Made by a program: the position numbers and the translations under genes. From an uncultured Chthonomonadaceae bacterium (GTDB taxonomy: Bacteria; Armatimonadota; Chthonomonadetes; Chthonomonadales; Chthonomonadaceae), in NCBI GenBank assembly GCA_963835065.1, contig CAWIEK010000015.1, positions 64,001-128,000 of the forward strand: 64,000 nt of DNA, in the 5' to 3' direction. The notes under the pieces are model-generated. The model was not told the origin of the DNA, ran no database searches, and saw only the letters and a list, made by a program, of their open reading frames with translations. Below are positions 448-60,550 of the stretch, piece after piece (position 1 is the stretch's first letter; each line of letters begins with the position of its first letter).

Positions 448-552
448 ATTTACCACGGATGAAACAGATGAAACAGATGAACACGGATAAAAACAACAAA
501 CTTCTGAATGAATCCGCGTTCATCCGCGCTATCCGTTTCATCCGTGGTAAAT
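448..552. repeat. Inverted tandem-repeat element, 9-mer CACGGATGA-like family
   Basis: ATTTACCACGGATGAAAC (448-465) is the exact reverse complement of 535-552. Confidence 0.9.
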
Positions 553-2063
553 CTTCTTCACGCTTGCTTGTTGGTCCATTTCTTTTGCTTGCTTTGCTGT
601 TGTTGACGGTAAGTGGCGGGGCGCAGACGATTACGATTGGGTCGAAGAAGGATTCGGAGTCGCATGTGCTGGCGGAAATCGCCCGCAGGCAGATACAGAA
701 CGCAGGCTTTGCCGACGTACAGCACCTGCCGGGATTGGGCGCGACCGGGATTGTCTGGAACAAACTTAAAAGCGGCGAAATCAGCGCGTACCCGGAATAC
801 ACCGCCACACTCAGCGAGGAGATTCTCAAACTCAAAGGAACGGTGACCGAGGAGCAGATACGCAGCGCATTGAAAGCCGAAGGCATCGGCATGACGGGCG
901 ATTTGGGCTTTGACGATAATTACGCCCTCGTGATGCGCAAAGAGCGGGCGCAGGCGTTAGGAATCGCAAAGATCAGCGACCTGAAAGCGCATGAAGATTT
1001 GCATGTTGGCCCGACTTCGGAGTTTCTAAACCGCAAGGATGGCTTTAACGCACTGTGCCAGCGCTATGGCCTGAACTTCTCCGATGTGGCCGCGCTGGAA
1101 CACTCCATCGGCTACGCGAAACTGCGCAGTGACCAGATAGATTTAATGGAGTGTTACACAACCGACCCGGAAATCGCCGAATACAACCTGATTGTTCTCG
1201 ACGATGACCTTCACTTTTTTCCCCGCTACAAAGCCCTGTACGTGTACCGCCTGGAACTGCCGGAAAAAGCGGTCAACGCTTTGAAAGGGCTGGAAGGAAA
1301 AATCAGTCAGGACGCCATTATTCGCCTGAACACGCAGGCGAAGAACATAAAAAAGGATTCGGATTACGCGATTGTGGCGGCGGGCTTTTTCGGCAAGGAA
1401 GCGGTTCAGCAGGCAAGCCGTAATGCGGAAAGCGTTGCGCATTACATTCTGCGGCTTACGGGCGTCCATCTGAAACTGGTGGGCATTTCGCTGCTGCTTG
1501 CCATACTTGTCGGCGTCCCGCTCGGCATTGCGGCAAGCCGCCCCGGTTCCCTGAGTACGATTATCTTAGGCGTGACCGGCATTGTGCAGACGATCCCTTC
1601 CCTCGCGCTGCTGGCCTTCCTGATTCCCATCCCCATCTTAGGCAAAGGCGCAACGACCGCCATCGTCGCCCTGTTCCTGTACAGCCTGCTGCCCATTGTG
1701 CGCAACACGGCAACAGGCTTGCAGAACATTGCCCCTTCCATCCGTGAATCCGCCGCCGCGCTCGGCTTGGAACCATCCGCGCAACTGCGCAAAGTGTTCC
1801 TGCCCATCGCGTCACGCACCATCTTAGCGGGCATCAAAACCAGCGCCATTATCAACGTCGGCACTGCCACCCTTGCCGCCTTCATCGGGTCGGGTGGGTT
1901 AGGCGAACCCATCCAAAGCGGCCTGAGCATCAACAACAACAATTTAATTTTGCAGGGCGCAATTCCCGCCGCCGTCCTCGCGCTGCTCGTACAGGCAGGC
2001 TTCGATCTGCTGGACCGCTTGCTCATCCCACGCGGCCTGCGCCTGCCAGTTAAAACAGAATAA
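459..2063 (+). CDS. Glycine betaine/choline ABC transporter, fused substrate-binding domain and permease
   Basis: ITIGSK...YPEYT binding-protein motifs followed by QTIPSLALLA and an EAA-loop permease; start uncertain (ATG 459 lies inside a repeat element). Confidence 0.85.
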   Translation: MKQMKQMNTDKNNKLLNESAFIRAIRFIRGKSSSRLLVGPFLLLALLLLTVSGGAQTITIGSKKDSESHVLAEIARRQIQNAGFADVQHLPGLGATGIVWNKLKSGEISAYPEYTATLSEEILKLKGTVTEEQIRSALKAEGIGMTGDLGFDDNYALVMRKERAQALGIAKISDLKAHEDLHVGPTSEFLNRKDGFNALCQRYGLNFSDVAALEHSIGYAKLRSDQIDLMECYTTDPEIAEYNLIVLDDDLHFFPRYKALYVYRLELPEKAVNALKGLEGKISQDAIIRLNTQAKNIKKDSDYAIVAAGFFGKEAVQQASRNAESVAHYILRLTGVHLKLVGISLLLAILVGVPLGIAASRPGSLSTIILGVTGIVQTIPSLALLAFLIPIPILGKGATTAIVALFLYSLLPIVRNTATGLQNIAPSIRESAAALGLEPSAQLRKVFLPIASRTILAGIKTSAIINVGTATLAAFIGSGGLGEPIQSGLSINNNNLILQGAIPAAVLALLVQAGFDLLDRLLIPRGLRLPVKTE

Positions 2064-2235
2064 ACCACAGAGGCACAGAGACACAGAGGGGTCACAGAGG
2101 GGAAGAAAGAAGAAGAGAAGAAGAGAAGAAAAGGAGATGGGGAACCGCGAAACACACGGAACAAACGAAACAAGACGAAAAGATTCTTCTTTTCTTCTCT
2201 CTGTGATTCCTCTGTGTCTCTGTGCCTCTGTGGTT
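2063..2235. repeat. Inverted tandem-repeat element, CACAGAGRN 9-mer family
   Basis: 27-bp perfect inverted arms 2063-2089 and 2209-2235; contains a solo arm of another family at 2142-2170. Confidence 0.95.
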
Positions 2236-2249
2236 CAATGGAGTTGCTT

Positions 2250-2972
2250 ATGCGTTCAGATAAGATTTCAGCGGCGGAACCCGTTAGCCAGTTGCGGTTT
2301 GTGAAGATTGTGGAGAACGGCGAGGAACTGGTTGATTTTCTGGAATTTTGCCCCGACTTGATGCTGGATCGAGCGCGGTTTCATTACCGGCGCGAAACGT
2401 TGATGCGGCGGAGTTTGGCGGAAAGGCTGTGTCAGGCGAACCGCGCGTTGCCCGCAGGGTATCGGCTTGCCATTATTGAAGGCTGGCGCGCGCCGCACAT
2501 TCAGCGCCGTATGTATCAGGCCACGCGCGCCCGCTTCCAAACCATTCATCCCGACTGGTCGGAAACGCAATTGACGCGAACCGTCAACCGTTTCAGCGCG
2601 CCTCTGAGCAAACAGGTTCCGCCGCCGCATACGACGGGTGGGGCAGTTGATCTGATGCTTGCGGATATGGAAGGGAACGCGCTTGATCATACCAGCCCGT
2701 TTGATCCTTATGACCCGCATAGCGCCTCGTTTGGGGCTTCAGGACTTTCGGATATTGCCCGCAAGCACCGCGACATTCTGGCCGAAGCCTTAATCCCTGC
2801 CGGCATCACCAATTATCCGAGCGAGTTCTGGCACTGGAGTTACGGCGATCAGGGCTGGGCGTATCGGGAGCGGCATCCTCACGCGCTGTATGGAGCCATT
2901 ACGCCGCAAGACTGGCAGCCTGCGCCCGAAGACGACATTGATACGCCTCTGGAAATGTTCGATACTCCGTAG
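2250..2972 (+). CDS. D-alanyl-D-alanine dipeptidase (VanX/DdpX, peptidase M15D)
   Basis: EGWR, PPHTTGGAVDL and EFWHWSYG zinc motifs; GGAG RBS. Confidence 0.85.
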   Translation: MRSDKISAAEPVSQLRFVKIVENGEELVDFLEFCPDLMLDRARFHYRRETLMRRSLAERLCQANRALPAGYRLAIIEGWRAPHIQRRMYQATRARFQTIHPDWSETQLTRTVNRFSAPLSKQVPPPHTTGGAVDLMLADMEGNALDHTSPFDPYDPHSASFGASGLSDIARKHRDILAEALIPAGITNYPSEFWHWSYGDQGWAYRERHPHALYGAITPQDWQPAPEDDIDTPLEMFDTP

Positions 2973-2999
2973 ATTTATATAGCCTCGCCGCGCATTACG

Positions 3000-3027
3000 G
3001 GAACACCCTGCCTGCCTTCCGCGTCTG
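3000..3027 (+). promoter_or_regulatory. Putative ECF-sigma promoter of the YsnF stress genes
   Basis: GGAAC-N18-GTCT, the same geometry as the motif at 12330-12357. Confidence 0.35.
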
Positions 3028-3128
3028 CATACCGGCTTGCAGCAAATGCCGCGCAAACCGCGCTCTTGTTAGATTAAACCTTAATCATGGCGCAATCCTG
3101 GCGTATGGGAGTCGGGGAAGGAACGAGT

Positions 3129-3932: not shown

Positions 3933-3982
3933 TACAAGGTTCGCGTTCGTACAACTCAATAACGGCTGACAGGGCTGCTAAA

Positions 3983-4043
3983 GAAGTTGATAGCTGAAAG
4001 TTCCTAACTACTGGTTCCCTATCAACTATCAACTATCAACTTC
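3983..4043. repeat. Inverted heptamer element (ATCAACT)n
   Basis: GAAGTTGATAG at 3983 pairs with (ATCAACT)3 at 4021-4043. Confidence 0.8.
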
Positions 4044-4085
4044 AAACGCAACCCCTGGAAGCAATCAGACAATGGAGAATGGTTC

Positions 4086-5222
4086 ATGTCACAAACAGTC
4101 ATCGGTTTATTCGATAGTTTCAGCCAGGCGCAAGCCGCCGTATCCGATCTGGAAGGTATGGGCGTCCCGCAAAGCAGCATCAGCATCGTCGCCAACAATG
4201 CCAACGATGAATATACCACTTGGCGCGACACACAGGGCAAGGACTATGCCCCGTCTCCTGCCGGAAGCGGCGCGAACACGGGCGCGGTTGCGGGCGGTAT
4301 CGGCGGTATCCTGCTTGGCTTGGGACTGCTGGTAATCCCCGGTCTTGGTCCTCTCGCCGCTGCCGGTCCTCTGGTTGCGGGCTTGACCGGCGCGGGTGTC
4401 GGCGCGGCGACGGGCGCGGTTGCAGGTGGATTGGTCGGCGCGCTCACCAATCTGGGCGTTCCCGAAGAACACGCGGGCTATTTCGCGGAAGGCATCCGGC
4501 GGGGCGGTACGCTGGTCACGGTTTCGGCTGCCGACAACATGGTTCAAAGCGCGATTGAGACGCTGAACCGTCACGGCGCGGTGGACATCAACGAGCGCGC
4601 GTCTTACTATCAGCAATCCGGTTACACGGGCTACAACGCGACTGCGCAGCCGTACACCGCCGCCGAATTGACGGCAGAGCGTGAGCGCGTTCGCGCCGCT
4701 ACCATTGCCGCCGCTCCCGTAACAGCCGCGCCGATGACAACCGAACACGTCACGACCAACCGAACTGCTACAGATGTCAGGCAGACGGTAAACGCGCAGG
4801 GCGAAACGGTTCTGCCCGTGATCGAAGAAGAAATCGCGCTCGGCAAGCGGCAGGTGCAAAGCGGCGGCGTCCGCGTGTACACCCGCGTGACGGAAACGCC
4901 CGTGCAGGAAAGCATTAATCTGCGCGAAGAGCATGTCACTATTGATCGCCGCCCCGTGGATCGCGCCGTGCATCCGAGCGACCTGACCGCATTCAAGGAA
5001 GGCGTGATCGAAGTGACGGAAACGGCGGAAGTGCCGGTTGTCGCCAAAGAAGCGCGGATCGTCGAAGAAGTGGTCGTCGGCAAAGCCGCTACGGAGCGGA
5101 CGGAAACGGTTCACGACACCGTTCGCCGCACTGATGTGGAAGTGGAGCAAATCGCCGGTCACACCACAACAACGGGCACGACGCCCAACACGGCGAATGA
5201 AGAACTCCTTCGCCCGGTGTAG
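4086..5222 (+). CDS. General stress protein (17M-like, Gly-rich TM hairpin) fused to YsnF/AvaK domain
   Basis: TVIGLFD, IPGLGPLAAAGP, EGIRRGGTLV, then PVIEEE...LREEHVTIDRRPVDR. Confidence 0.85.
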   Translation: MSQTVIGLFDSFSQAQAAVSDLEGMGVPQSSISIVANNANDEYTTWRDTQGKDYAPSPAGSGANTGAVAGGIGGILLGLGLLVIPGLGPLAAAGPLVAGLTGAGVGAATGAVAGGLVGALTNLGVPEEHAGYFAEGIRRGGTLVTVSAADNMVQSAIETLNRHGAVDINERASYYQQSGYTGYNATAQPYTAAELTAERERVRAATIAAAPVTAAPMTTEHVTTNRTATDVRQTVNAQGETVLPVIEEEIALGKRQVQSGGVRVYTRVTETPVQESINLREEHVTIDRRPVDRAVHPSDLTAFKEGVIEVTETAEVPVVAKEARIVEEVVVGKAATERTETVHDTVRRTDVEVEQIAGHTTTTGTTPNTANEELLRPV

Positions 5223-5227
5223 TGAGT

Positions 5228-5329
5228 AGATATAAGATACAAGATATAAGATATAAGAAGGACAAGAAAGCGACAAAGGAAAATCTTTAGCCGCATCTTC
5301 TAATATCTTATATCTTGTATCTTATATCT
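5228..5329. repeat. Inverted heptamer element (AGATATA)n
   Basis: 27-bp perfect arms 5228-5254 and 5303-5329, including a mirrored variant unit. Confidence 0.95.
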
Positions 5330-5392
5330 TTTCGCTTATTTTCCTCTAAAAGAACTTCACGAACTTCCTATATTTCGGGTATCCTGCTACAA

Positions 5393-6277: not shown

Positions 6278-6283
6278 GAATTC

Positions 6284-6643
6284 ACCACCCGCTGCGCTAG
6301 AGACACAGAGAGAAGAGAAGAAAAGGAGAAGAGGAGAGGGGAAGGTAAGGAACCGCAAAACACACGAAATAAACGAAAAAAGACGAAAAGAAGAAAGACG
6401 AAAAGAACCAGGCAAGTCACCAGAGGCCACCGCATCTTCAGGACAAGCAAGGTTCCCTCTCTACCGTAATCCTGTTTAATCCTTCTAATCCCCTTAATCC
6501 TGTCTATTTCCTCTTGTTCTTTTTGCATTTTCTTTTCGTTTAGTTCGTGTGTTTCGCGGTTCCCTCTCCTCTTCTCCTTTTCTTCTTTTCTTCTCTTCTT
6601 TTTTCCCTCTCTGTGTCTCTGTGTCTCTAGCGTAGCGGGTGGT
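6284..6643. repeat. Nested composite of inverted repeat elements between convergent genes
   Basis: Outer arms 6284-6310/6617-6643, purine/pyrimidine arms, inner arms 6349-6379/6533-6563, solo TAATCC array 6467-6504. Confidence 0.9.
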
Positions 6644-6654
6644 TCATTTTCATT

Positions 6655-7617: not shown

Positions 7618-7979
7618 AGTTTGCCAGGCCCTCACAAGTGCCTGCGAATAAAGCGTGTTAAGATGCGACTGAATAGACAGCGCAATCAGCAAGGAGACTG
7701 AGTTTAATCTTCCATCGTCCGAAAGACGTATCTGTAGGGCGAAATGTTCGGCAATGTCGGGCGGGCAGAAAACATACCGAACTTTGTCAATGTTCGATAG
7801 AAGCAGTAGTGTGGTATTTTCAGAAATGTTTTAATGGGAAGAGGCGCTCACGGCATCGAACCGGACGTTGCCTGAAACTCTAAAATTAATTTGCGTGATT
7901 TTGCCGCTTATTGGTTCTTGTCGGCAGTGAGTAAGCAGAACCCGCCGTTTCACCACTGTTTGCAGGGAGACAACGCGCC

Positions 7980-15500: not shown

Positions 15501-15605
15501 GGAAACCGGAAACGAGCCAAGCAAAACCGCGCCGATCAAGCACAGCACGACGGTAACGAACAAGACGGCTTTAATGTTGGCCGTAGCAAAGCGGCTGAGG
15601 TTCAT
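12558..15605 (-). CDS. RND efflux permease (CusA/CzcA/AcrB family), split by two frameshifts (about 13805 and 12727)
   Basis: GLVIDDAIVVVEN, GIVVKNGILL, RLRPILMTT and PLAVAVIGGL motifs across three ORFs. Confidence 0.9.
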
Positions 15606-17484
15606 GGCTTGCCGCCTTTCTCATCTGAGGAGGTGTTTGCCGCGCCGGGTTTGGGAGTATCGGCTTTCTTCGTGTCGGCTTTGTCCGCGTCGGGTTTAGC
15701 CCCGTCAGATTTGGCGTCGCCTTTTGGGTCCGGTTTTGCGCCCGGTTCCGCTTTGGCGTCATCCTTCTTATCGTCTTTCTTATCGTCCTTTTTGCCTGCC
15801 GCGTCCGGCTTGTCGTCACTCCCCGCTTCCGCCGCTTTGGTCTTTGCGCCGTCCGTGAGTTCGTAGTTGCCTACGCTGACGACCTGCTGCCCCGCTTCCA
15901 GTCCACTGAGCAGGGCGATACTGCTGCCGCCCCCAACTTCCGGGCCAACCGTGACCACATGGGCGTGAGCCGTATCATCTTTGGCAACCGTATAAACCGT
16001 CGGCTTGCCGTCCTGCGTGACAACCGCGCTTTTGGGCACGACAACGGCGCGATTGATGCGGCGGAGGACAATATCAGCCGTTGCGAACGCGCCCACGCGC
16101 AGGCTGCCGGGATTGGAAACCGCAATTCGCACCGACAGCAGATTAGTTTGCGGATCAACCTGCCCCACGCTCAAGACTCGCCCCGGAAAGATTTTGCCCG
16201 GAATATCAGACGTGGCTACATGCGCCTCCATGCCCGCTTTTACTTTCAAGCCATCCTCGGCGGGAAGATTGGCGACTAAATTCAAGCCGCGCGTGTTGGA
16301 GATTTCGAGAATGGGCGCGGTCACATCGGCCATATCACCCGCGTTGGCGTTGCGTTTAGTAATCGTGCCGTCAATCGGCGCGACAATCTCGGCGTAATTG
16401 GCGGTTGCCTGCGCCGCCGCATAATCGGCCTGTTTCTGGTTTACCATGTCGCGCATCGCCTGCGCGTCTTGTTGTTTCACGGCGACATTGAGACGGCTGC
16501 GCTCGGCCTGCTGCAAGGCGGCGCGGGCCTGCTGTACGCGGGCATCGCCACCCTTCTGCGCCTGCGCCAGCGTGTCGCGGGCAGCGTCAACGCGCAACTG
16601 CGCGGCGCGCAAATCTTCCTGCCGCGCCCCCGCCCGGAGCAGATTAGCCGCCTGTTGCGAACTTGTCAGGGAGGAGTTGGCGACGGTAAGCGCAGTCTGC
16701 GCGTCGTCGAGTTGGCGTTTGGCGGCAATGCCCTTGTCGAACAAAAATTGAACGCGGGTGAGTTCCGTTTGGGCGCGGTCACGAGTGGCCTGCGCCTGCG
16801 CAATGGTTTGTTCGGCCTGCGCGATTTCCTGCGGACGCGCGCCCGCGCGGGTTTTGGCAAGATCAGTCTGCGCGGATTCCAGCGCGTTTTGCGCCTGCCG
16901 CGCGGACGCTTCCCGATCCAGCGTGGCGGATTCTAAGCAAGCCGCGCCGTCTGCACCGAGCCGGACTGATCCACCTGCGCCGCGCTTGCCGCCAGTCGCG
17001 CGGAACGCGCCTGCGCCTCCGAAGCGACCAGCGCGGCCTGCGCGCTCTTTGCCTGCGCCTGCTGCGGGCGATTGTCTACGACGGCCAGCTTCTGCCCCGC
17101 CCGGACGCGCTCGCCTTCGCGGACATACACGCCAAGCAGCCGTCCCGCAATCGGAGCCGTCACCCGAACATTGCCGCCCTGTCCCGGCGACAGCGTACCC
17201 TGCGCCCCAACTGTAATATCCACAGACTGCACGGTAGAAGCCGCCAATTCCACCGTGACGGGCGCGGCAGTTTCCGCCTCGCCCTTGTCCGCTTCACCGC
17301 CCCCCGCCGCGCCCTTCTTGCCGCACCCGCTCAACAGTAAACCGCAGAAGACGCAGGGGAGCAGGAACCGCGAAAAACGCGAACCAAACGAAAAATAGAA
17401 TACAAAAGGGGAGGGGCCAAAATGGTGTCGCCGCTCAAAAAGTGAAATAGATGTTAAGGATTTCATTGTATTGTTGAACTTCAT
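15602..17484 (-). CDS. RND periplasmic adaptor (membrane fusion lipoprotein), frameshifted at about 16935 and 16750
   Basis: LLSGC lipobox, APIAGR...VREGERVRAGQ and APIDG lipoyl halves, long coiled coil, K/D/A-rich tail. Confidence 0.85.
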
Positions 17485-17569
17485 GGTGGATACAATTCTT
17501 GCTTTGTAGCTGTGTTGTTTTCCGTGTATTTTTGGTTCTTTTTTCGTTTGGTTCGTGTGTTTCGCGGTT
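17366..17569. repeat. Inverted element of the AACCGCGAAA family overlapping the adaptor gene start
   Basis: 30-bp arms 17366-17395 and 17540-17569 with 2 mismatches. Confidence 0.85.
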
Positions 17570-20082: not shown

Positions 20083-20125
20083 TTTAGCCGCAAATACACG
20101 CAAGTACACGCAAATAGGTGCAAAT
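20083..20125. repeat. Solo 10-mer array (CAAATACACG-like)
   Basis: CAAATACACG CAAGTACACG CAAATAGGTG CAAAT. Confidence 0.5.
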
Positions 20126-21500: not shown

Positions 21501-21616
21501 AATGATGAGTGATGAATGATGAGTGATGAATAACATGCAATAGATGTCCAGCGAACGTGCCTAATGCAAATTGGAGATGTGCGATATTCATCACTCATCA
21601 TTCATCACTCATCATT
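21501..21616. repeat. Inverted heptamer element (GATGAGT/GATGAAT)n
   Basis: 32-bp perfect arms 21501-21532 and 21585-21616; contains the regulator stop codon. Confidence 0.95.
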
Positions 21617-25925: not shown

Positions 25926-26077
25926 AAGGTTATTCCTCGTGTAAGGGTTTTAGTTGATAGTTGATAGAGAAATGCGCGGCGACATTGCGGCGCGGGTTTG
26001 TTGGATGTGTGGCTGCAAGATTCCGCATGGCACATTAGATTTCCTGCATAAAGAAGGCGTTGAGGTTTTATAAAGAT

Positions 26078-26932: not shown

Positions 26933-27938
26933 CAGCCCCTTTGACTTTGAAAAACCGATTGCCGAACTGGACGATAAAATTATCGAACTGAAGCGGTTTG
27001 CGACGGAAGCCGGGGCGCGGGCGGACGCGCAGGCGCGGGGCATTGACATTGACGCGGAGATCGCCAAGTTGGAAACCCGACGGGAGCAAGCCATGCGGCA
27101 CATCTTCTCACACCTGACGCCGTGGAACGAAGTGCAAATGGCGCGTCACCCGCAGCGCCCGTATACGCTGGATTATATCAGCCTTCTCTTCGAGGACTTT
27201 ACGGAACTGCACGGCGACCGCGTGAATGCCGACGATCCGGCGATTGTCGGCGGCTTCGCCCGCTTCCACAACAAATCCGTCGTCGTCCTGGGACACCAGA
27301 AAGCGCGCGACCTGAAAGAGCGCCAACTGCGCAACTTTGGCAGCGCGCGCCCCGCCGGGTTCCGCAAAGCCCTGCGCCTGATGAAATTGGCCGACAAGTT
27401 CAACAAGCCCTTAATTGTATTCGTAGATACCCCGGCTGCGGAAGCGAATCTGCTGGCGGAAGAAGAGGGTATCAGCGCGACGATTGCCGTAAACCTGCGC
27501 GAAATGGCCGGCCTGCGCATCCCGATTGTGGTTGCGGTTATCGGCGAGGGTGGCAGTGGCGGCGCGTTAGGCATTGCCGTTGGCGACCGTATCTTAATGC
27601 TGGAACACGCGATTTATTCCGTAATTCCGCCCGAATCCTGCGCCGCGATTTTGTGGAATGACCGCGCCCGCGCCCCCGAAGCCGCCGACGCCCTCAAACT
27701 TACCGCCCACCATGCCTTAGAATTCGGCATTATAGACGAGATCGTTCCCGAACCACTGGGCGGGGCGCACCGCAACGTAAACGAAATGGCCGCCACCCTC
27801 AAACAAGGCATCAGCCGCAACCTGACCCTGTTAAGCAAACTCTCGCCCGACGAACTGCAATGCGCCCGCTATGAGAAATTCCGCCGCATCGGTGAATGGG
27901 AAGACCCTACAGTGTTGCTGAAGACGGGAACGGAGTAG
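26922..27938 (+). CDS. accA: Acetyl-CoA carboxylase carboxyltransferase alpha subunit
   Basis: FEKPI, ARHPQRPYTLDY, ELHGDR, GEGGSGGALG; GTG start with GAGGAG. Confidence 0.97.
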   Translation: MSLNSPFDFEKPIAELDDKIIELKRFATEAGARADAQARGIDIDAEIAKLETRREQAMRHIFSHLTPWNEVQMARHPQRPYTLDYISLLFEDFTELHGDRVNADDPAIVGGFARFHNKSVVVLGHQKARDLKERQLRNFGSARPAGFRKALRLMKLADKFNKPLIVFVDTPAAEANLLAEEEGISATIAVNLREMAGLRIPIVVAVIGEGGSGGALGIAVGDRILMLEHAIYSVIPPESCAAILWNDRARAPEAADALKLTAHHALEFGIIDEIVPEPLGGAHRNVNEMAATLKQGISRNLTLLSKLSPDELQCARYEKFRRIGEWEDPTVLLKTGTE

Positions 27939-28063
27939 TTCACCACCAAGACACAAAGAACACCAAGAAAAACAAAGAGAAGAAGCGAGAAGAGATGCAA
28001 AGCAGAACTTGCTCTGAATTCCCTTCTCCTACTTGGTGTTCTTCGTGTCTTGGTGGTGAACTA
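27936..28063. repeat. Inverted element, CACCAAGA-like 9-mer family
   Basis: 32-bp arms 27936-27967 and 28032-28063, 1 mismatch; begins at the accA TAG. Confidence 0.9.
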
Positions 28064-28463: not shown

Positions 28464-28502
28464 GTGTTCGGTGTTCAGGTATTCGGGTGTTCAGGTATTG
28501 GG
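28464..28502. repeat. Solo octamer array (GGTRTTCR)n
   Basis: GTGTTCG GTGTTCAG GTATTCGG GTGTTCAG GTATTGGG. Confidence 0.7.
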
Positions 28503-32480: not shown

Positions 32481-32600
32481 GGTGTCAGGTTTCAGGTGTC
32501 AGGTGTCAGGAGATTACATCAATGCGTTGTCTTCACGATATGACAGCAAGAGTGTTGGCAGCAACGGTCCTGACACCTGACACCTGACACCTGACACCTT
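32479..32600. repeat. Inverted heptamer element (AGGTGTC)n
   Basis: 33-bp arms 32479-32511 and 32568-32600, 1 mismatch; begins in the receptor TAA. Confidence 0.95.
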
Positions 32601-36845: not shown

Positions 36846-36954
36846 GTAGGGTTTTAGGGTTTTAGGGTTCTAAGGTTTTAGGGGAACAGGCTTCGTTAGT
36901 CCTGTCGGAACTAAACACTTAAAACCCTAAAACCCTAAAACCCTAAAACCCTAC
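36846..36954. repeat. Inverted octamer element (TTTTAGGG)n
   Basis: Arms 36846-36882 and 36918-36954. Confidence 0.9.
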
Positions 36955-38986: not shown

Positions 38987-39096
38987 GGTAGACGGTAGAC
39001 GGTAGACGGTAGACAGTAGAATGTTGGCTCTTATGGAAGGTATCTGCTTCCAGTAAGAGTTATCTACCGTCTACCGTCTACCGTCTACCGTCTACC
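38987..39096. repeat. Inverted heptamer element (GGTAGAC)n
   Basis: 34-bp arms 38987-39020 and 39063-39096, 1 mismatch. Confidence 0.95.
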
Positions 39097-39113: not shown

Positions 39114-39650
39114 ATGACGGACTTGCACGACGCAGACAGTTTGCCGGACGCGGAAGAAAGCGCGTTGCAGGCCGGTATTGACCCCGCAACGCTGCGCCCG
39201 GATCAGCAGACCGGGTTTGCGCTGATGCAGGAGATTTGCGCGGCGATTGGGCAGGACACGCGCCCGGTGGTAATGGCGGTACAGGGCGCGTACATGCACG
39301 TTGCTCTCGTGGGAAGTGACGTTGCCGCAACGTGGGGGCGCATGGGGCAATCCTTGGACGCGCTGCAAATGCTCGCCAACATGATTTTATCGCGGCAAGT
39401 CGGCAGTGACGTGCGCCTGATGCTGGATGCCGACAACTACCGCGAACGCCGCGCCGATACGCTTAGAGGTATTGCGCAGGAGTATGCCCGCGAAGTGAAA
39501 GAGCGCAACGAAGAAGCGGAAATGGAACCCCTCCCCGCCCACGAACGCCGCATCATCCACTCCGCATTGGTAGACGACCCCGACATCGAAACCTACAGCG
39601 AAGGCGACGAACCGCACCGGCGGATTGTGATTTCGCCAAGAAGACAGTAG
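39114..39650 (+). CDS. jag: Jag/EloR/KhpB RNA-binding protein (KH and R3H only)
   Basis: GRMGQSLDALQ, LDADNYRERR, ERRIIH, TYSEGDEPHRRIVI; synteny. Confidence 0.9.
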   Translation: MTDLHDADSLPDAEESALQAGIDPATLRPDQQTGFALMQEICAAIGQDTRPVVMAVQGAYMHVALVGSDVAATWGRMGQSLDALQMLANMILSRQVGSDVRLMLDADNYRERRADTLRGIAQEYAREVKERNEEAEMEPLPAHERRIIHSALVDDPDIETYSEGDEPHRRIVISPRRQ

Positions 39651-39756
39651 TCGGTAGTCGGTAGTCAGTAGAACAGCTCCTACTCCAACTACTTTCGTAA
39701 ATGTATAAAGCATTGAATAGACAGGCATTTCTACTGACTACTGACTACTGACTACT
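39646..39756. repeat. Inverted heptamer element (GTAGTCR)n
   Basis: 28-bp arms 39646-39673 and 39729-39756; contains the jag TAG. Confidence 0.9.
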
Positions 39757-39768
39757 TTCTTCTTCCTC

Positions 39769-40218: not shown

Positions 40219-40366
40219 GTCTGAACCATGATTTTTCATGATTTAGATGATTACCATGAGGCTTCGTCGTCTCAAATCAAAATTTGCCTCATTCACAAAG
40301 GGTAAAACAAACGCTTACCCGCAATCATGGTAATCACCTAAATCATGAAAAATCATGGTTCCAGAC
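40219..40366. repeat. Inverted element, CTGAACCATGATT family
   Basis: About 41-bp arms 40219-40259 and 40325-40366; supplies the stop codon of the dehydrogenase. Confidence 0.9.
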
Positions 40367-42843: not shown

Positions 42844-42962
42844 AGGTTTCAGGTTTCAGGTTTCAGGTGTCAGGAAGGCTGGCATGTTTGCTTTCCTTTT
42901 CTGACAGCAAAGTTGAACATGTGGCAGAGTTCCTGACACCTGAAACCTGAAACCTGAAACCT
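42844..42962. repeat. Inverted heptamer element (AGGTTTC)n
   Basis: 33-bp perfect arms 42844-42876 and 42930-42962 with a mirrored variant unit. Confidence 0.95.
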
Positions 42963-44212: not shown

Positions 44213-44220
44213 AGAATATA

Positions 44221-45153
44221 TTAGATGCCCCAACAGAAAGGGTCGTCAGGGTTGAAAATCAGGGTTGCCTCGGCGTTGACATAGGCGGAGCCGCGAATAG
44301 TCGGAATTAATGTATCGCCTTCCACGCGGATACTGCCCTCGAACACGCTGCCGATAATGCTTTCCTGCCGCCAGATTTCGCCTTCGCGTAATTTGCCGTC
44401 CGCGTACAGGCAGGCCAGTTTCGCGCTTGTGCCCGTGCCGCAGGGCGAGCGGTCATACGCTTTGCCGGGACAAAGGACGAAGTTACGGCTGTCTGCGTCG
44501 GGAGTATCCGAGGGCGCGAACAGTTCGATGTGGTCAATTTCCTGCCCGTCGCGCCCCGTAATTCCCTGCGCCGACAACGCCTGCCGTATGCGCCAGGTGA
44601 AATCCGTCAGGGCTTCGACGTTGCGCAACGTTAATTCCTGTCCGTGTTCCTCCACCAGAAAAAACCAGTTGCCGCCCCACGCCACATCGCCGCGAAGAAC
44701 GCCGATGCCTTCCACAACGACATTGACGCCTTTTGCATAACGGTAAGCGGGCACATTCTCAACGGAAACGTCGCCTGCCTCGTGCAGCGTGGCCGTGACA
44801 ATGCCGACCGGGGTTTCAATACGGTATGTACCCGGAGTGAGGTGTTTACAATACGCAAGCGTGACCACAACGCCAATCGTGCCATGCCCACACATGCCTA
44901 AGTAACCGACGTTATTGAAGAAAATCACTCCAAATTCGCAGTCGGGTTCTTGCGTTTCGGCGAACAGTGCGCCCACCAGCACATCGGAACCGCGCGGCTC
45001 ATTAACGACGGCAGCGCGAAAGCGGTCATGCTGCGTTTGAAACACGCGCATTTTTTCCGCAACGCTGCCGCCGCCCAAATCCGGCCCGCCGTCCACAACC
45101 ACCCGCGTCGGTTCCCCACCAGTATGCGAATCTATTACAGAGACTTTGTTCAT
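44221..45153 (-). CDS. 4-hydroxyproline 2-epimerase (proline racemase family)
   Basis: [15 protein letters not shown] and DRSPCGTGT catalytic Cys motifs. Confidence 0.92.
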
Positions 45154-45238: not shown

Positions 45239-45389
45239 CTGAACCATGATTTATGTGATTAGAATGATTACCATGATCTCAGGAAGCGCGCTCCTCTGTT
45301 TGAATTATGATGTGACTGATGAGAGGATTGCCATGATGAAGACCAGCCCAATCATGGCAATCATCCTAATCACATAAATCATGGTTCAG
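45239..45389. repeat. Inverted element, CTGAACCATGATT family
   Basis: 39-bp arms 45239-45277 and 45351-45389, 2 mismatches; supplies the stop codon of the DapA-like gene. Confidence 0.9.
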
Positions 45390-52139: not shown

Positions 52140-52156
52140 CGCTCCCCGCTAACGCC

Positions 52157-52202
52157 GAACAGCCTGCTTTTATCGAAGTTTACCGATAAAAGCAGGCTGT
52201 TC
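52157..52202. terminator. Hairpin between convergent genes
   Basis: 19-bp perfect stem GAACAGCCTGCTTTTATCG/CGATAAAAGCAGGCTGTTC. Confidence 0.8.
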
Positions 52203-52219
52203 TCAGAACAAAATGTCCG

Positions 52220-53191: not shown

Positions 53192-53203
53192 GGATGAGTC
53201 CTT

Positions 53204-54709
53204 TTAGATAATTTGGCTGATGGGCGGCGTGTATTCCACGCCGACAAGTTTTTGGTTTAAGCCGCCGTAGAAGTAGGAAAGGCGGTTGGGGTCTACGCCC
53301 ATTTGCTGCAAGATGGTGGCGTGAAGGTGTTTCACTTTGAACGGGTCTTCCACCGCCGCGCTGCCCAACTCGTCCGTTTGGCCGACGGAAACGCCGCCCT
53401 TGACGCCGCCGCCCGCCATCCACATCGTAAACCCGTAGGCGTTGTGGTCGCGGCCCGTGCCTTCCGCGTATTCGGCGGTTGGCTGGCGTCCGAACTCCCC
53501 GCCCCACACAATCAGCGTACTGTCGAGCAGGCCGCGTTGTTTCAGGTCTTTGAGCAGGCCGGCAATCGGCTTGTCGGTTTCGCCCGCGTGAAGGGTATGG
53601 TTGACAACAAGATCGTTGTGCGCGTCCCATGTCGAATCCACATGGTTGCCGCCCGAATACAGTTGGATGAACCGGACGCCCCGCTCTACCATCCGCCGCG
53701 CCATCAGGCACTGCCGCCCGAACACCGCCGATTTCTTGTCGTTCAGCCCGTAGAGTTCCTTGATGTATTCCGGCTCCGCATTGATGTCTACGGCTTCGGG
53801 CGCAGCCGCCTGCATCCGGTACGCGAGTTCGTAACTGGCAATCCGCGCGGCAAGGTTGGAGTTGTCGGCGTGAAGCGCTTCGTGTTCCTGATTGTAATCG
53901 TGCAGCGTGTCCAAAATTTCGCGCTGCGCCCCATCCGTTTGTCCCTGCGGGCGCTTCAGGTCAAGAATGGGCGTTGCGCCCGCATTCATAACCGTTGCCT
54001 GATAGCTGGCAGGCATGTAGCCGCTGCTCCAGTTTTTCGCGCCGGAAATCGGTCCGCCGCGCGGATCGAGCATCACGACAAAACCCGGCAAGTTCTGGTT
54101 CAGGGTTCCCAATCCATAGTTGACCCACGATCCGATGCACGGGCTGCCCGACAGAATTTTGCCCGAATTCATTTGCAGCATGGCCGAGCCATGAATGGGC
54201 GAGTCGGCGGTCATAGAGTGCAGGAACGCAATGTCATCCACGCACGTCGCCAGATTGGGGAACAGATCGGAAACGTACTTGCCGCACTGCCCATACTGTT
54301 TGAACTTCCAGCGCGGCTCCACAATCCGCCCCTGATTTTTGTGCCCGCCCCGCCCAAACGTCTTGATCTGGATGGTTTTGCCGTCCATGCCGTACATCGT
54401 GGGCTTATAATCGAACGTGTCAATCTGGCTCGGCCCGCCATACATATACAGGAAAATCACGCTTTTGGCTTTCGCCGGAAACATGGAGGGCTTAGGAGAT
54501 AGCGGGTTGAGGGGAGTCGGTGTTCGGTGTTCGGTGTTCGGTATTCGGGAAGATTTGGCGTCGGCGCGGGCAGAGGGCGCAAAAAAGCCGTCGGCGGACA
54601 GCAGGCCGGTCAGGGCGAGGCCGGTGAAGCCCGCGCCGCCTTCCCACAGAAACTCACGGCGCGTCCGTCCGCAAAACTCGCCCGTTTTATTAGAGGATTG
54701 GTTGCTCAT
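53204..54709 (-). CDS. DUF1501 (sulfatase-like) protein with Tat signal
   Basis: TRREFL, AKSVIFLYMYGGPSQIDTFDYKP, GEFGRQP, GRDHN. Confidence 0.9.
   Translation of the reverse strand: MSNQSSNKTGEFCGRTRREFLWEGGAGFTGLALTGLLSADGFFAPSARADAKSSRIPNTEHRTPTPLNPLSPKPSMFPAKAKSVIFLYMYGGPSQIDTFDYKPTMYGMDGKTIQIKTFGRGGHKNQGRIVEPRWKFKQYGQCGKYVSDLFPNLATCVDDIAFLHSMTADSPIHGSAMLQMNSGKILSGSPCIGSWVNYGLGTLNQNLPGFVVMLDPRGGPISGAKNWSSGYMPASYQATVMNAGATPILDLKRPQGQTDGAQREILDTLHDYNQEHEALHADNSNLAARIASYELAYRMQAAAPEAVDINAEPEYIKELYGLNDKKSAVFGRQCLMARRMVERGVRFIQLYSGGNHVDSTWDAHNDLVVNHTLHAGETDKPIAGLLKDLKQRGLLDSTLIVWGGEFGRQPTAEYAEGTGRDHNAYGFTMWMAGGGVKGGVSVGQTDELGSAAVEDPFKVKHLHATILQQMGVDPNRLSYFYGGLNQKLVGVEYTPPISQII
54517..54548. 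repeat. In-frame heptamer array (TCGGTGT)n inside the DUF1501 gene
   Basis: Encodes PNTEHRTPT just after the Tat peptide. Confidence 0.85.
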
Positions 54710-54726
54710 GGTGTGCGTGTTTTTCT

Positions 54727-56020: not shown

Positions 56021-56034
56021 TGTTTTTCCTGCTG

Positions 56035-58749
56035 CTAATCCAAATACAAAAACTCGTTCAAGTTCAACGCTACGATGCAGTACGCCCGCAGCGCCTCATC
56101 CGCCGTGTAATGGTGCTTGGTCTGCATGGCTTGCAGGAAATTGCAGCCGCGCATCACTTCCTTCTGGTTGGGTTCGCGCTGAAGGACACGGCGGAGTGTC
56201 AATGTCACCTGCTTTGCCGGTTCGCTGCCTGCTTGTTTCTTCACGAAATCGGCAAATACCTGCGCCTGCTCGTTAATAAACGCGCTGTTGAGCAAACCCA
56301 ATGCCTGCGTGGGCTGCGTGGTGGCGAAGCGAACGGGGCACGTCGAATCGGTATCCGCCGCGTCGAAACTGGCGAGAATGGGAACCGTCAGCGAACGCTT
56401 GATGTGAATGTAAATGCTGCGCCGCGCCTTGTCTTCCGGCGTGGACATTTCCCAATCCGCGCCCGGACGCGACTGCCCCGCCAGCACTTCAGGGGGAATA
56501 GTCGGATAAATGCTCGGCCCGTACATTTTCGGATTCAAACTGCCGTTCGCGGCCAGAATTGAATCGCGCACCTCTTCCGCATCCAGCCGCCGCATATCGA
56601 ACCGCCACAGCAAATCATTGGCCGGGTCCTGCGCCAGCGCTTTCGGGTTCGCCTCCGAAGACATCCGGTACGCGCTCGACATCAGCATCAGCTTGTGCAG
56701 TTTCTTGAAAGACCAACCGCAGGCAAAGGAGTTGATAGTTGATAGTTGATGAGTTGATAGGGGCGATTTCTTCATTATTCCCTCTTTCCCTTTTCCCTTT
56801 TTCCTCCGCAACGAAGTGGCTCGCCAGCCAGTCCAGCAGTTCGGGGTGCGTGGGCTTGTCGCCGGCGAAGCCGAAGTTGGAGGTGGAGCGGACAAGGCCG
56901 CGTCCGAAATGGTGCTGCCACAGGCGGTTGACGATCACGCGGGCGGTGAGCGGATTGGACGGACTGGCAATCCAATCGGCGAGGGCGAGACGACGCCCGG
57001 AAGAGGGGATACCGGCTGCGGGCGCGTGAATGTCGGGCGCAGGTGGGGCCAGCACGGACGGAAAACCGGGCGTCACCGGATCGCCGGGAACGTGCGGGTT
57101 GCCGCGCAGCATTATTGTCGTTGGCGGAATGACTGGCGTTTCGGTCACGCAGAGAGCTTTTTCTAAGGTGGGCGGCGGCGATTTCAGCAAGGCATCCTGC
57201 TGCTTCATCAGGTCGGCGTACTGATTGTACTGTTCCTGCGACAGCAGTTTGGGTACGCGCTTCTTCAGAATGGCAAGCTGCGCCTGCTTGTTGCGGAACT
57301 CTTCTTTTTCCACGGGCGCAAAATCTTTATCCACCAGTCTCACGATGTTGGTCATCTGCTGCCGGGTCGTGTCCAATTTGAGACGATAGGCGTTTTCTTC
57401 CCCGAACACGCGCTGACGATCTTCCGGCGTACCCAACACGCGCAGGGAGTTTTGTTCGGGCGAATGTCCATTCCCGCCGTAACGGGTTGTACCCTGAAAA
57501 AAGGCGACGAGGCGGTAATAATCCTTCTGCGGAATGGGGTCTATTTTATGGTCGTGGCAGCGGGCGCAGTTTACGGTCAGGCCGAGAAACACCTGCCCCG
57601 TTGTCGCCACCACATCGTCCAGTTCATCGTAACGCGCCTGTTCGGGGTCGGACGGCTCATCGTCCCACGAACCCAAACGGTAATAGCCTGTGGCAATCAG
57701 CGCGTCATTGCCGGCAGACGGCAGTTCGTCGCCTGCAAGCTGTTCCCGGATAAACTGATTGTACGGCTTGTCCGCGTTCAAGGCCCGGATTACGTAATCC
57801 CGATAGCGCCACACGAACGGCTTGGGGCTGTCGCGCTCGAAGCTGTTGGTTTCCGCGTAGCGCACCAAGTCCAGCCAGTGCCGCGCCCACTTTTCGCCAT
57901 ACTGCGGACTGGCGAGCAGTCGGTCCACCACTTTTTCATAGGCGTTGGGCGATTTGTCCGCCAGAAACGCCCGCGTTTCTTCGGCAGTCGGCGGCAGGCC
58001 AATCAGATCGTAGGTGACGCGGCGCAGCAGCGCGTTTTTACTCGCAGGCGGCGCGGGCATATACCCGTTCTTTTCCAGTTTGGAAAGGACAAAAGCGTCA
58101 ATCGGGTTCGTCACCCACGCTTTATTTTTGACAGGCGGCACAACAGGGCACTTCACCGGCTGAAACGACCAGAACTTCATGGTTTCGGCGTTGACGGGCG
58201 GCGGGCCGTGCTTGGCGGGAGCGGCATCGGTTTTGCCGTTTGCAGCGTCCGCTTTGCCGCTTGTTCCACTTCCGGCCTTGCCGGGTGTGGCTGTTCCGTT
58301 CTTACTCGTTTTCGGCGCGTCTGTCATGGGCAAGCCCATTTCAACCCACTTCGTCAGGGTATCAATCTGCGCTTTCGACAGCCTGCTGCGCGGCGGCATG
58401 GAGCGCCCATCGCCCTTGACGGCGCGTAAAATCAGGCTTTCCTGCGGCTTCTCCAAATTCACGCCCGGCCCGGAACTGCCGCCCTTCAGAATAGAAGCGC
58501 GAGTTGACAATTCCAGTTGCCCGCTCGAACCTTCGCCTTCGTGACAACTGTAGCAGGTTGTTTTGAGGATCGGCAAAACCTGCGCCGTGTAAAACTCCAG
58601 ATTGGACTTTTGCTTGTCGCTTTGCTTATCACTTTTGCCTGCGGGGTGGGCGCGGCAGGCGTTTGCGCGAAGGCAACGGTCAGCCCTGCTGCCAGCGTGG
58701 GAAGCGTGAGAAGAAGCGCCAATTTAGTATTGAAAAGCCTGTTTGTCAT
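56035..58749 (-). CDS. Planctomycete cytochrome c + DUF1549 + DUF1553 (PSD1) protein; frameshifts at about 58595 and 56751
   Basis: [60 protein letters not shown]. Confidence 0.92.
56729..56805. repeat. Two heptamer arrays, (AGTTGAT)n and (TTCCCTT)n, inserted within DUF1553
   Basis: Lie between WLASHFV and GWSFKKLH, which are normally nearly adjacent. Confidence 0.85.
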
Positions 58750-58796
58750 CAGATAACTTTCACGTTTTCGCCGAGCTGACTTCTCGTTCCCATTGC

Positions 58797-58924
58797 GGCG
58801 ACGGGCTGAACCCCTTCGCTGTATGGCCTGCGGCCCAGTGTTCGGACACATTCTCTATACGAGGGTTTCTGTCCGAAGGACAGTTGGTGGAACGCCATAC
58901 AGCGAAGGGGTTCAGCCCGTCGCC
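58797..58924. repeat. Paired REP/BIME-like inverted element
   Basis: 31-bp perfect arms 58797-58827 and 58894-58924, internal TGTCCGAAGGACA hairpin; followed by (AATCGRA)3. Confidence 0.85.
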
Positions 58925-58956
58925 AATCGAAAATCGGAAATCGGAATCATCAACTC

Positions 58957-60124
58957 TCAACCCATATCCGGCACAACAGCATCGGTTAAATGATTGATAA
59001 TGGCGGCCACAGCGCCCTGCCGCTTGCTGCCCTGCGCCTGCACAATACGGCAATCGGCAAATGCGGGGGGCAGGGCGCGGCGTCGGGTTTCGTCAATCAG
59101 GCAGGAGAACAAATTCGCGTCCGCCGCAAACAATTTGCCATGCACGAACAGCGTGGACGGATTGAACAGGTTGAGAACCGCCGCCACGCCAACCGCAAGA
59201 TAGCGGCACGTTTGCTGCAATTCCGCGCGCAGGTCGAAGTCGCCGGACTGAATCAGGGCAATGGTCTGCTTCCACCGTGATTTTGCGCCCTAACTTTTGC
59301 CCCACCAGCCACGCGAGAGCCGCATCGCTGGCAACGGTTTCCAGACAGCCCCGGTTGCCGCACCCGCACGGCCTGCCGTCCATCTGTACCGTGACGTGTC
59401 CGAGTTCCCCGGCAAGCCCGCTATGCCCGGTCAATAATCTGCCGCCGCTCATCACGCCAAGTCCGATGCCCGTGCTGACATCCAGCATGGCAAAATTGTC
59501 CAGCCCCCGCGCCGCGCCGAAATGCCGCTCCGCAAGGCAAAGCGCATGGGACTCCTGCACCAGTATACATTCAATTCCTAAATGGCGGGACAGGGCTTCT
59601 CCGGGCGCGCGTTCATTGGTAATGGGAACGTTGGGAGAAAGCAGGCTACGGTTCTGGCGATTGTCCAGCAGGCCGGGAATACTGACTGCCATGCCCAATG
59701 TTGCCACATCCGCGCGCTGCATCAGGCGCCTGGCATAGTAAACGGACGTTTTAATCAGGGCGTCATACGTGGCGGGCGTGGGAAACGATTCGACGCAGCC
59801 GTCATGCAGTTTGCCGTCCAGCCCGGCGCAAACCACGCGGCATTGTTCCGCGTCAATCACCAATCCCAACACCTGAACGCGCGAACTGGCAAGCTGTAAC
59901 TTTTTGCCCGGACGCCCCCGCGCCAGTTCCGGCGCGTCGCCTTCTTCCACCAGCCCCGAACGCAGCAGCGACTCAACAGCTTTGGAAGCGGTCGGGGCGC
60001 TGATGCCCGAATGACGCGCAACCTCAGCCCGCGACAATGGCCCCTGCGCCTGCAAAGCGCGAAGCACCTGCCGCTCGTTGATTTTGCTCAATAGCGCGGG
60101 TTGTACGACGGATAGACTGCTCAT
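58957..60124 (-). CDS. ROK-family transcriptional regulator, frameshift at about 59270
   Basis: HTH SRAEVA, GIGLG, GELGH, CGCGNRGCLET. Confidence 0.92.
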
Positions 60125-60130
60125 AGAAGG

Positions 60131-60159
60131 ATTATACAAACCTTCAGGCTGTTTGTCAA
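60131..60159 (-). promoter_or_regulatory. Consensus sigma70 promoter, probably giving a leaderless ROK mRNA
   Basis: TTGACA-17 nt-TATAAT ending 6 nt before ATG. Confidence 0.8.
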
Positions 60160-60240
60160 GACTGTTTAATAAAGAATCTTTAGAAAATTTCTGTTCCGGT
60201 TTGTACGACTGTACGGCAGTGAGAAAATCTAAGTGGGAAA

Positions 60241-60550
60241 AAGAGTATGTAGAGTCATCGTCGAAATCTTGGCAATACAGCGCTTCCAGCCCGATGTCTC
60301 ATTGTGTCTGGTTGTAGGAGGAGGCGTCGTGGCCTCGAAAGCGTCAGGGCGGGCGGGAAGAGTTTACAGGCATCTTCTTGCGCCTCCTTTCCTGAGTTGA
60401 TAGTTGATAGTTGGTAGTTGATAGGAACTGCGAACGTTCCGCCTTTCTTTGCGAATAGTAGACACTTGTACTTTTTAGACAGGGTATGTGGGGCAAAAGG
60501 TTCGCTTTTCTTCGCGTTATTTTGATCTTTTTTCTGTTTCTTTTTTGCGG
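60241..60550 (-). ncRNA. Dispersed repeat unit, copy 2 (see 12294-12545), carrying an ATCAACT array at 60394-60425
   Basis: GAAC-N19-GTCTAA, AAGGAGG SD, micro-ORF, conserved 3' block. Confidence 0.6.
60344..60373 (-). CDS. Candidate micro-ORF MPVNSSRPP
   Basis: AAGGAGG with GGAGG 9 nt before ATG; paralogous to 12415-12441. Confidence 0.4.
   Translation of the reverse strand: MPVNSSRPP

Follow-up and report, generated by a model that had tools for sequence, protein, structure and literature searches.

What kind of genetic element keeps its architecture while its sequence differs from one copy to the next? The question is raised by a stretch of 64,000 nucleotides from an uncultured bacterium of the Chthonomonadaceae (the window), in which a sequence-only reading had recognized a family of hairpins, each made of short tandem units in two inverted arms around a spacer, and had proposed that they are non-autonomous or emptied units of an undescribed system. 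Cyanobacterial STRR heptamer repeats have a similar look.

Hairpins in the window

The family is real. An inverted-repeat scan of the window returned 18 pairs at a score of at least 17, while Markov-3 simulations of the same stretch gave no pair in nine of ten runs and one pair in the tenth, which excludes a chance origin. These pairs resolve into 14 distinct tandem-arm sites, a non-tandem palindrome (58797) and a short hairpin (52157); beside them there are a further pair of weak score and several arms that stand alone or are mismatched, and every unit type named in the sequence-only reading was recovered. Folding of six elements as RNA gave z-scores of -6.4 to -12.1. An assembly artefact is likewise excluded: an independent run yielded a contig that reads through the whole element at 40223, with 19 differences over 254 bases, and the congener G002, assembled separately, has the same architecture.

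Among the heptamer hairpins, AGATATA (5221..5336, the scanned site starting at 5228), GATGART (21501..21616) and GGTAGAC, which lies between yidC and jag (38987..39096), each face ACGAGAT in G002. AGGTGTC (32479..32600) faces GGTAGAC, AGGTKTC (42844..42962) faces ACGAGAT/AGATAGG, and GTAGTCR at the jag stop codon (39638..39764), whose unit is that of the C8 four-helix cassette, faces AATATAGG; the octamer hairpin TTTTAGGG, just 5' of rnpA (36846..36954), has AGGTTGTT as its counterpart. At 38987..39096 the contigs of 96-98% relatives stop fitting, and at 42844..42962 a 94% relative has 110 unlike bases, both being recognized from loss of contig fit and not from the letters. The weak heptamer pair (3972..4054, score 14) belongs to the AGTTGAT family and has an eroded left arm.

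In the 9-mer class, the CACGGATGA hairpin (448..552), the CACCAAGA hairpin at the accA stop codon (27936..28063) and the CATGATT hairpin spanned by the independent contig (40223..40361) face the same family in G002. A second CATGATT hairpin (45239..45389) faces a CAGGATT-type element, and the AACCGCG hairpin (17366..17569) faces an arm relic only. A composite of the 8-10-mer class, with CACAGAG outer arms and additional inner left arms, lies immediately 3' of a stop codon (2063..2235); three nested inverted layers occupy the space between convergent genes at 6279..6648, where G001 has a different nested 9-mer element.

Unpaired arms are found at 20089..20113 (a 10-mer arm, with a related solo arm in G002), 25951..25967 (AGTTGAT; empty in G002), 28470..28496 (AGGTGTTC type), 54517..54548 (TCGGTGT), 58925..58946 (a right arm of AATCGAA type adjoining the palindrome, 58797-58924) and 60395..60424 (AGTTGAT). 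A mismatched pair, AAAAGGG on the left and AGTTGAT on the right (arms at 56730 and 56785), sits inside a DUF1553 gene on the reverse strand (56730..56805), at a codon where paralogues bear other units; the reading frame shifts inside this insert.

Genome-wide population and enclosed genes

Across the genome, which is 92% complete and whose ORFs were called with our own hexamer-based caller, about 690-700 hairpins form two classes, with units of 7-8 nt and of 8-10 nt. About 25 unit families coexist, the largest being AGGCATT with 109 copies, and an arm holds about four units. Most units are without G-tracts. The spacers had been described as unique, but not all are: 163 of 501 group into clusters, and the AGTAGTC family has one spacer consensus in common. 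A left/right mosaic test of the spacers gave a weak result on star-like data (r 0.22, against 0.29-0.46 for random splits).

One imperfect 26-mer arm is present at 28 sites, and others at 20, 16 and 12. Since these imperfections are common to arms at many sites, the arms were copied from templates and not grown by local slippage. For bacterial heptamers, an origin by slippage has been suggested in print (PMC4692102), and the two arms of a pair are co-corrected, 3.8% of positions deviating in both arms and 3.5% being mismatched. An account by polymerase slippage and fold-back template switching, which would need no dedicated protein and would make gene association a by-product of insertion by small dispensable genes, is nonetheless very improbable and already disfavoured: polarity is fixed, with the G-rich arm first in 573 of 596 elements, imperfect arms and spacers recur at many unrelated sites, and two gene families are enclosed with a class-specific period, against none of 94 control windows.

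The sequence-only reading had named four-helix-bundle and GxxExxY genes as often flanked by such arms, and this proved correct at all six loci of this genome: three four-helix genes (TIGR02436) lie between arms like the 7-8-nt units and three GxxExxY genes between arms like the 8-10-nt units. Family-wide, matching arms enclose 12 of 18 four-helix and 28 of 34 GxxExxY loci, after setting aside 2 of 20 and 2 of 36 that had no alignment or lay at a contig edge; the controls gave 0/31 and 0/63. The same did not hold for RT genes, as neither of the two RTs lies between arms. Neither is near a four-helix match, and DGR-like or RT-written arms are unsupported; spacer substitutions fall over all bases with no A-bias, an unbiased spectrum that leaves hypermutated spacers unneeded.

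The four-helix protein belongs to PF05635, and the GxxExxY protein to PF13366, a nuclease family of the PD-(D/E)XK fold. The model of the latter (pLDDT 93) had no Foldseek match at E<=0.001; Cas4 came first (E 0.005), and archaeal Holliday-junction resolvases matched weakly. For this predicted structure, the search does no more than agree with the Pfam fold. We know of no catalytic activity for the four-helix protein, and of no function assigned to TIGR02436 or TIGR04256 (GxxExxY), both large families. With three proteins per class and about 25 unit families, one-to-one matching is impossible. The C19 GxxExxY cassette differs from its G002 orthologue in the left arm and agrees with it in the right, and at the site of a G002 GxxExxY cassette G000 has only the left arm and no gene.

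G001, without a four-helix gene, has 0.5 heptamer hairpins per 100 kb (vs 7.8 and 4.8) and about equal numbers of the 8-10-mer class (1.7 per 100 kb vs 2.1 and 2.0). Four-helix genes are also present in G005 and G045, yet heptamer hairpins are lacking from the 80 and 57 kb examined there; on samples of 20-80 kb, having the gene is therefore not enough to predict how many elements a genome carries.

The hairpins are mobile. Whole elements at 94-98% spacer identity occur in unrelated flanks, and comparison of orthologous junctions, to which the sequence-only reading had looked for empty sites, located such sites at G002 junctions and at MetRS. The stated lack of a target duplication stands, direct repeats in the flanks of 558 and 131 elements being equal to those of shuffled pairs. 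The stated lack of a transposase stands for the window; the genome has four Y1-transposase (PF01797, RAYT) matches outside it, of which one sits within non-tandem inverted ends. Among the 90 long arm pairs listed, with ORFs judged by eye, the only genes with a clean tandem-arm enclosure are four-helix and GxxExxY genes; transposase-like ORFs sit between non-tandem ends, and no autonomous insertion sequence with the same ends and a transposase was found. A search for a GTAG tag at the foot of the arm was negative: in 248 elements with a TAG-less unit, an outer-end GTAG occurs in 19% (upstream) and 8% (downstream). The proposal of an undescribed system is partly supported. Most short elements of this genome, however, are not cassettes that have simply been emptied; for the largest family, AGGCATT, no cassette was found in the 92% of the genome at hand.

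Orthologous sites and the exchange of units

Conserved positions might also be expected of RNA elements. In 23S rRNA, intervening sequences carry an S23p four-helix ORF (PF05635) in a long inverted repeat. A PF05635 ORF inside an inverted repeat is found here too; unlike the ribosomal case, all three four-helix cassettes lie between protein-coding flanks and most elements are ORF-less. The hairpins could, by analogy, be domesticated RNA elements, long duplexes at the junctions of operons that RNase III cleaves or the four-helix protein binds, with units drifting by concerted evolution. Their predicted structures are stable, 440 of 525 intergenic heptamer elements lie between co-directional genes (vs 74% background), site occupancy is conserved, the protein is of PF05635, and the Xanthomonas repeats are transcribed and stable in position (PMC4692102). 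We consider the idea quite improbable all the same: arm clusters lie within 227 of 7,143 called ORFs (about 3%), including the aminoacyl-tRNA synthetases LeuRS and MetRS, where a cut would do damage; of 22 co-directional sites scored as empty in G002, about 15 seem genuinely so; and G001 is nearly without the heptamer class.

G002, saturated at neutral sites, is the sole congener compared at depth; JGI metagenomes held no close relatives (0 matches, and in another search 5 loci at 39-69% identity). The junction table draws on 1.6 Mb of G002 and comprises 457 orthologous junctions. G002 has a heptamer element at 44 of 71 junctions that have one here, and at 10 of 344 that are empty here, and the table of classes reads 44/0 and 2/8 (p 4e-8). 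Of the 44 heptamer/heptamer junctions, 2 have the same unit in both genomes, 5 have units differing by a single base and 37 have different units. The claim that architecture and not unit sequence is conserved can therefore be seen site by site, at G002 junctions and at places within genes. Because a related species mostly bears repeats at these spots too, made of other units, existing copies have likely been overwritten by new ones.

Spacers are clearly orthologous in 2 of 26 testable junction pairs, the other 18 of the 44 having a spacer outside 35-75 nt (a first test gave 1 clear case in 28), so that a general change of arms in place, with an inherited spacer, is unsupported. By rank, the spacers are weakly enriched in orthology (KS p 0.049) and several exchanged units are related (AACAGGG, AAAAGGG and AAAAGGAG), so part of the change may have been gradual. 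The counterpart of a GTAG-containing arm tends to contain GTAG as well (7/9 vs 5/35, p 6e-4).

The copies inside proteins and the exchange at the same site had both escaped the sequence-only reading. G002 also has arms in 31 of 37 rows of orthologous in-gene places (35 distinct places), mostly different ones, with a family in common for the left arm in 5 of 23 and for the right in 4 of 26. The in-gene comparison and the first spacer test, among others, kept junctions whose flanks end within 90-120 nt of the element. Exchange here proceeds one side at a time, left and right arms separately. In-gene AACAGGG left arms number 17 here and 1 in G002, AAAAGGAG 2 and 14, and ACGAGAT 0 and 8. In MetRS, all eight relatives listed outside G000 and G002 have a short loop, and G000 and G002 bear different units at that codon; in LeuRS, five of the eight best homologues have inserts of repeat type in one and the same loop, at least four kinds in all. 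Even G001, which has no four-helix gene, shows repeat tracts at 3 of the 6 places within genes.

Ordinary cut-or-copy miniature transposons, with a preference for landing in an older hairpin loop or just 3' of a stop codon, would turn exchange into nested insertion and decay, the older arms being deleted. In the 8-10-mer class some layers are indeed fully nested (window 6279), and nested insertion followed by deletion can therefore yield part of the pattern. As an explanation of the whole it seems unlikely, though it carries some weight. The 831 multi-arm heptamer clusters include 516 matched, 152 mismatched, 20 half-nested and no fully nested cases, with a right arm before a left in 6; exchange also affects mismatched in-gene pairs unable to form a hairpin, passing through a stage with a stop codon would be costly for single-copy MetRS or LeuRS, and target duplication is absent.

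Known systems and a possible mechanism

Donor-templated overwriting of existing arms, REPIN/RAYT-like with other proteins, is our best reading. At a probability of roughly 55%, we take these to be gene-less mobile hairpins whose arms of about 30 bases are likely copied from donors onto existing arms, the site staying occupied, with the two enclosed genes probably supplying recognition and the predicted GxxExxY cut. The participation of the four-helix and GxxExxY proteins in the exchange is something that we infer. The process would begin with a nick or break in an arm already present, made in the 8-10-mer class by the PD-(D/E)XK protein GxxExxY and in the 7-8-mer class by some nuclease partnering the non-catalytic four-helix protein. 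Repair would be templated by an ectopic arm or whole element through short purine-rich ends in common. Colonization of new sites would be rarer, mostly just 3' of stop codons, and selection would retain, between genes, hairpins with matching arms and, in proteins, arm pairs that are hydrophilic and free of stops.

Like REPINs, the elements are inverted doublets around a spacer; they are non-autonomous, lie mostly outside genes and are copied as a unit. RAYTs likewise offer a low-copy, largely stationary neighbour gene thought to act in trans, and clusters form at existing copies (PMC3116915). REPIN arms are small palindromes whereas those here are tandem arrays, RAYT is an HUH tyrosine transposase in place of a four-helix or PD-(D/E)XK protein, and, unlike in REPINs, about 25 units coexist and replace one another, with many copies in proteins (PMC3116915). 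The heptamers GGGAATC of Xanthomonas and GGGGA(C/T)T of Nostoc share arrays of about four units, convergent inverted pairs (70 and 75 cases), and stable positions near stop codons between aligned ORFs (PMC4692102). A single unit per genome is described there and read as a G-quadruplex repeat, unlike the units here, most of which lack G-tracts; the available part of that account reports no link to a mobile element or protein and no unit exchange (PMC4692102). In-frame insertion in unrelated genes is present here as in Rickettsia palindromic elements, palindromic inserts in often metabolic genes, although those are conserved families of about 150 bp, whereas ours consist of stacked heptamer arms, with one codon bearing different arms in different species (PMC10969869). 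Ssn with its NTS/SRM hairpins resembles our cassettes as a small nuclease gene flanked by a genome-filling repeat; Ssn has a GIY-YIG fold, a non-tandem hairpin and demonstrated activity, whereas the activity of the PF13366 PD-(D/E)XK nuclease here is predicted (PMC11893778).

Tentatively, and with considerable doubt, the elements may exemplify a widespread transposase-free selfish DNA, in which an arm of about 30 bases overwrites arms of the same polarity genome-wide, even in essential proteins, driven by two orphan families, the GxxExxY nuclease and an Avd-like four-helix pentamer. 'Tandem inverted repeats' that have an associated protein have reportedly been described from a Patescibacteria genome, which could lower the novelty; our literature search did not find the paper. 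Heptamer repeats are over-represented in bacteria, an excess left unexplained, and the part of the published record available to us holds only bare heptamer pairs (PMC4692102). The present genome pair links such repeats with TIGR02436 and TIGR04256, and offers class-faithful arm exchange at fixed sites as the behaviour to test. If the overwriting of arms is true, it would account for the over-representation of 7-base repeats in bacteria and would represent a natural short-range DNA rewriting activity. The repeat-made loops that differ between congeners are a fast source of new protein sequence.

Tandem-arm elements in the window and across the genome

The window contains 14 strong sites with inverted tandem arms, along with one weak pair and several arms that are solo or mismatched. 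An inverted-repeat scan finds 18 pairs, compared with 0 to 1 per simulated window; the paired elements described in the sequence-only reading are real. An independently assembled contig bridges the element at 40223 from end to end. In the source assembly (8.0 Mb, 92% complete; the window is C15:64001-128000), 1,158 inverted pairs have spacers no longer than 1.6 kb. Of the outer elements whose spacer does not exceed 330 nt, 558 belong to class H (7-8-nt units), 132 to class G (8-10-nt units with a short end motif in common) and 302 to neither (621 class H and 165 class G under looser settings), which upholds the proposal of a genome-scale family with many unit sequences. The G-rich arm leads in 573/596 tandem elements, and heptamer arms hold a median of 4.4 units.

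With our own gene caller (7,143 ORFs), 440 of 553 class H elements were placed between co-directional genes, 51 between convergent and 34 between divergent genes, and 28 within ORFs. The co-directional elements start no more than 15 nt from the upstream stop in 76% of cases, in part because several units include a stop codon. Spacers of the AGTAGTC family have a near-constant length (quartiles 55-58 nt; the centre for all heptamer elements is 116 nt) and a median pairwise identity of 55% over their first 33 bases, which points to a length constraint. The non-tandem palindrome at window 58797-58924, probably a REP-like element, represents another repeated family and is also found nested with a second one at C9:150057. 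Five window genes, encoding an RND permease (12698-15605), an adaptor (15602-17484), a D-amino-acid dehydrogenase (42961-44233), a DUF1553 protein (56035-58576) and a DISARM DrmD-like SNF2 helicase (60649-63210, in two pieces and scoring under the curated cut-off), are split between two frames or ORFs, which suggests assembly indel errors or pseudogenes.

Shared sites and changed contents in a congener

Of 6,098 junctions tested, the 457 with an orthologue in the 1.6 Mb of sequence that covers them in the congener G002 were compared (median flank identity 82%). Class H faced class H at 44/71 junctions, and junctions empty in the genome under study held class H in the congener in 10/344 cases; class G faced class G at 8/22, and class H of the genome under study was never opposite class G of the congener. 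At the 44 H-H junctions the two units matched exactly in 2 cases, differed by a single base in 5 and were different in 37, and spacers were clearly orthologous in just 2/26; shared ancestry explains that junctions are occupied, not what they contain. Architecture rather than sequence is conserved at a site, as had been supposed. Within the window, the elements at 5228, 21501, 32479, 36846, 38987, 39638, 42844 and 45239 are unlike those of the congener, while those at 448, 27936 and 40223 are of one family in both genomes. Judged by contig fit, not letters, relatives at 94-98% identity cease to fit at 38987 and have 110 unlike bases at 42844, where a 93% relative retains the arm.

Elements whose spacers are 94-98% identical occur in unrelated flanks. 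Twenty-two co-directional class H junctions were scored empty in G002; by eye, 7 hold eroded arms and about 15 seem empty, so that orthologous empty sites, the sign of mobility sought at the outset, do exist. At the cleanest, our element lies between a stop codon and a ribosome-binding site or start codon, and its first left-arm bases overlap bases present at the empty site as well. Target duplication, already inconspicuous to the first reading, is absent from element flanks in this genome. Methionyl-tRNA synthetase (MetRS) has a short loop in the relative G001 and in seven further relatives among those listed, and inserts in both our genome and G002, which gives the direction of change.

Two side observations concern site use. 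A relative at 96% identity (run X1) has contigs that no longer fit on either side of the element at window 39637-39764, for 255 and about 2,000 bases, which suggests a larger insertion or rearrangement there. At the G002 orthologues of C27:1933, C49:396398 and C11:89154, where our genome has tandem arms, lies a GTAG-tagged REP-like palindrome; unrelated repeat systems therefore share some sites.

Arm exchange within proteins

ORF interiors contain 259 arm clusters in 227 ORFs, and adjacent left-right pairs fall within ORFs in 19/531 matched versus 133/248 mismatched cases. In-ORF use declines as hydrophobicity rises (rho -0.65, p 6e-4; 24 stop-free arm types), a trend that can be read as selection favouring hydrophilic loops. 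Arms are present in G002 at 31 of 37 orthologous in-gene rows (35 distinct places), of the same family in 5/23 left and 4/26 right arms, and AACAGGG in our genome gives way lineage-wide to AAAAGGAG and ACGAGAT in G002. Several units occur at one codon in LeuRS homologues and DUF1553 paralogues: of 15 of the latter with a conserved motif, 10 have repeat-type inserts at a shared codon, built from several different units, while one more has another repeated insert close by and the remaining four lack any (examples: C2:19509, C22, C50, C53, C63 and window 56730). One LeuRS homologue, at 63% identity, bears the name Chthonomonadaceae, which hints at the lineage.

The observations as a whole are in keeping with donor-templated overwriting, in which arms or elements already in place are the target (probability about 0.55): a break at an existing arm would start the event, and a donor template would then overwrite that arm or the whole element. 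The main rival, nested insertion followed by deletion, we regard as unlikely; the 831 multi-arm clusters comprise 516 matched, 152 mismatched (a count stemming partly from close unit definitions), 20 half-nested and 0 fully nested, and the right arm precedes the left in 6. Mismatched in-gene pairs cannot form a hairpin, and their arms are exchanged nonetheless. A role in RNA fits less well and is improbable. Slippage without a protein also fits more poorly, and is the least credible account; arm variants with the same imperfections turn up at as many as 28 sites.

Genes enclosed by arms and known systems

The first reading's statement that such arms often flank four-helix (TIGR02436) and GxxExxY (TIGR04256) genes proved sound. 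All six such genes in the genome, three of each, are arm-bracketed (five matched, one mismatched); across the family, 12/18 four-helix loci (periods 7-8) and 28/34 GxxExxY loci are enclosed, against 0/31 and 0/63 control windows, the sets including five loci of our genome and omitting two dropped from each. Of the 28, 15 have period 8-10 and 13 weak periodicity. One GxxExxY cassette has its left arm alone changed, another both arms changed in step, and a third is down to a single arm in our genome. PF05635 is the family of the four-helix protein, which shows a bAvd match below threshold and has a five-chain PDB relative, 2gsc; the GxxExxY protein is PF13366, whose predicted structure gives weak matches only, to Cas4 and archaeal resolvases. 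Each role given to a protein in overwriting is deduced from co-location and from the match of class.

In G001 (97% complete) the four-helix gene was not found, class H hairpins are almost nil in 400 kb and class G density is normal. A simple rule linking gene and class is countered by the relatives G005 and G045, which have the gene and no class H hairpin in 80 kb and 57 kb, respectively, and by the unit families of our genome, for most of which no cassette of their own was found. One four-helix cassette site of G002 corresponds to a gene-less 9-mer class element here (C40:6872), a cross-class exchange. A reverse transcriptase gene lies at C49:681456-683452, adjoined by putative cas1- and cas2-like ORFs; a second (477 aa, type unclear) lies at C50:52482-53912.

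One earlier paper reportedly deals with a protein linked to tandem inverted repeats; the full-text search did not locate it. That search, with most subscription journals outside it, found no literature linking these arms to either protein; passages of PMC4692102, PMC3116915, PMC3733652, PMC10969869 and PMC11893778 were covered. GxxExxY appears in three papers, incidentally in the passage covered, and PMC10462680 contains no match to the search terms. Repeat positions tabulated in the PMC4692102 supplements could bear on exchange. The system works like REPIN/RAYT, yet belongs neither to that family nor to any other that was tested. It is real, mobile and genome-wide, and its distinctive result is exchange, arm by arm, at fixed sites.
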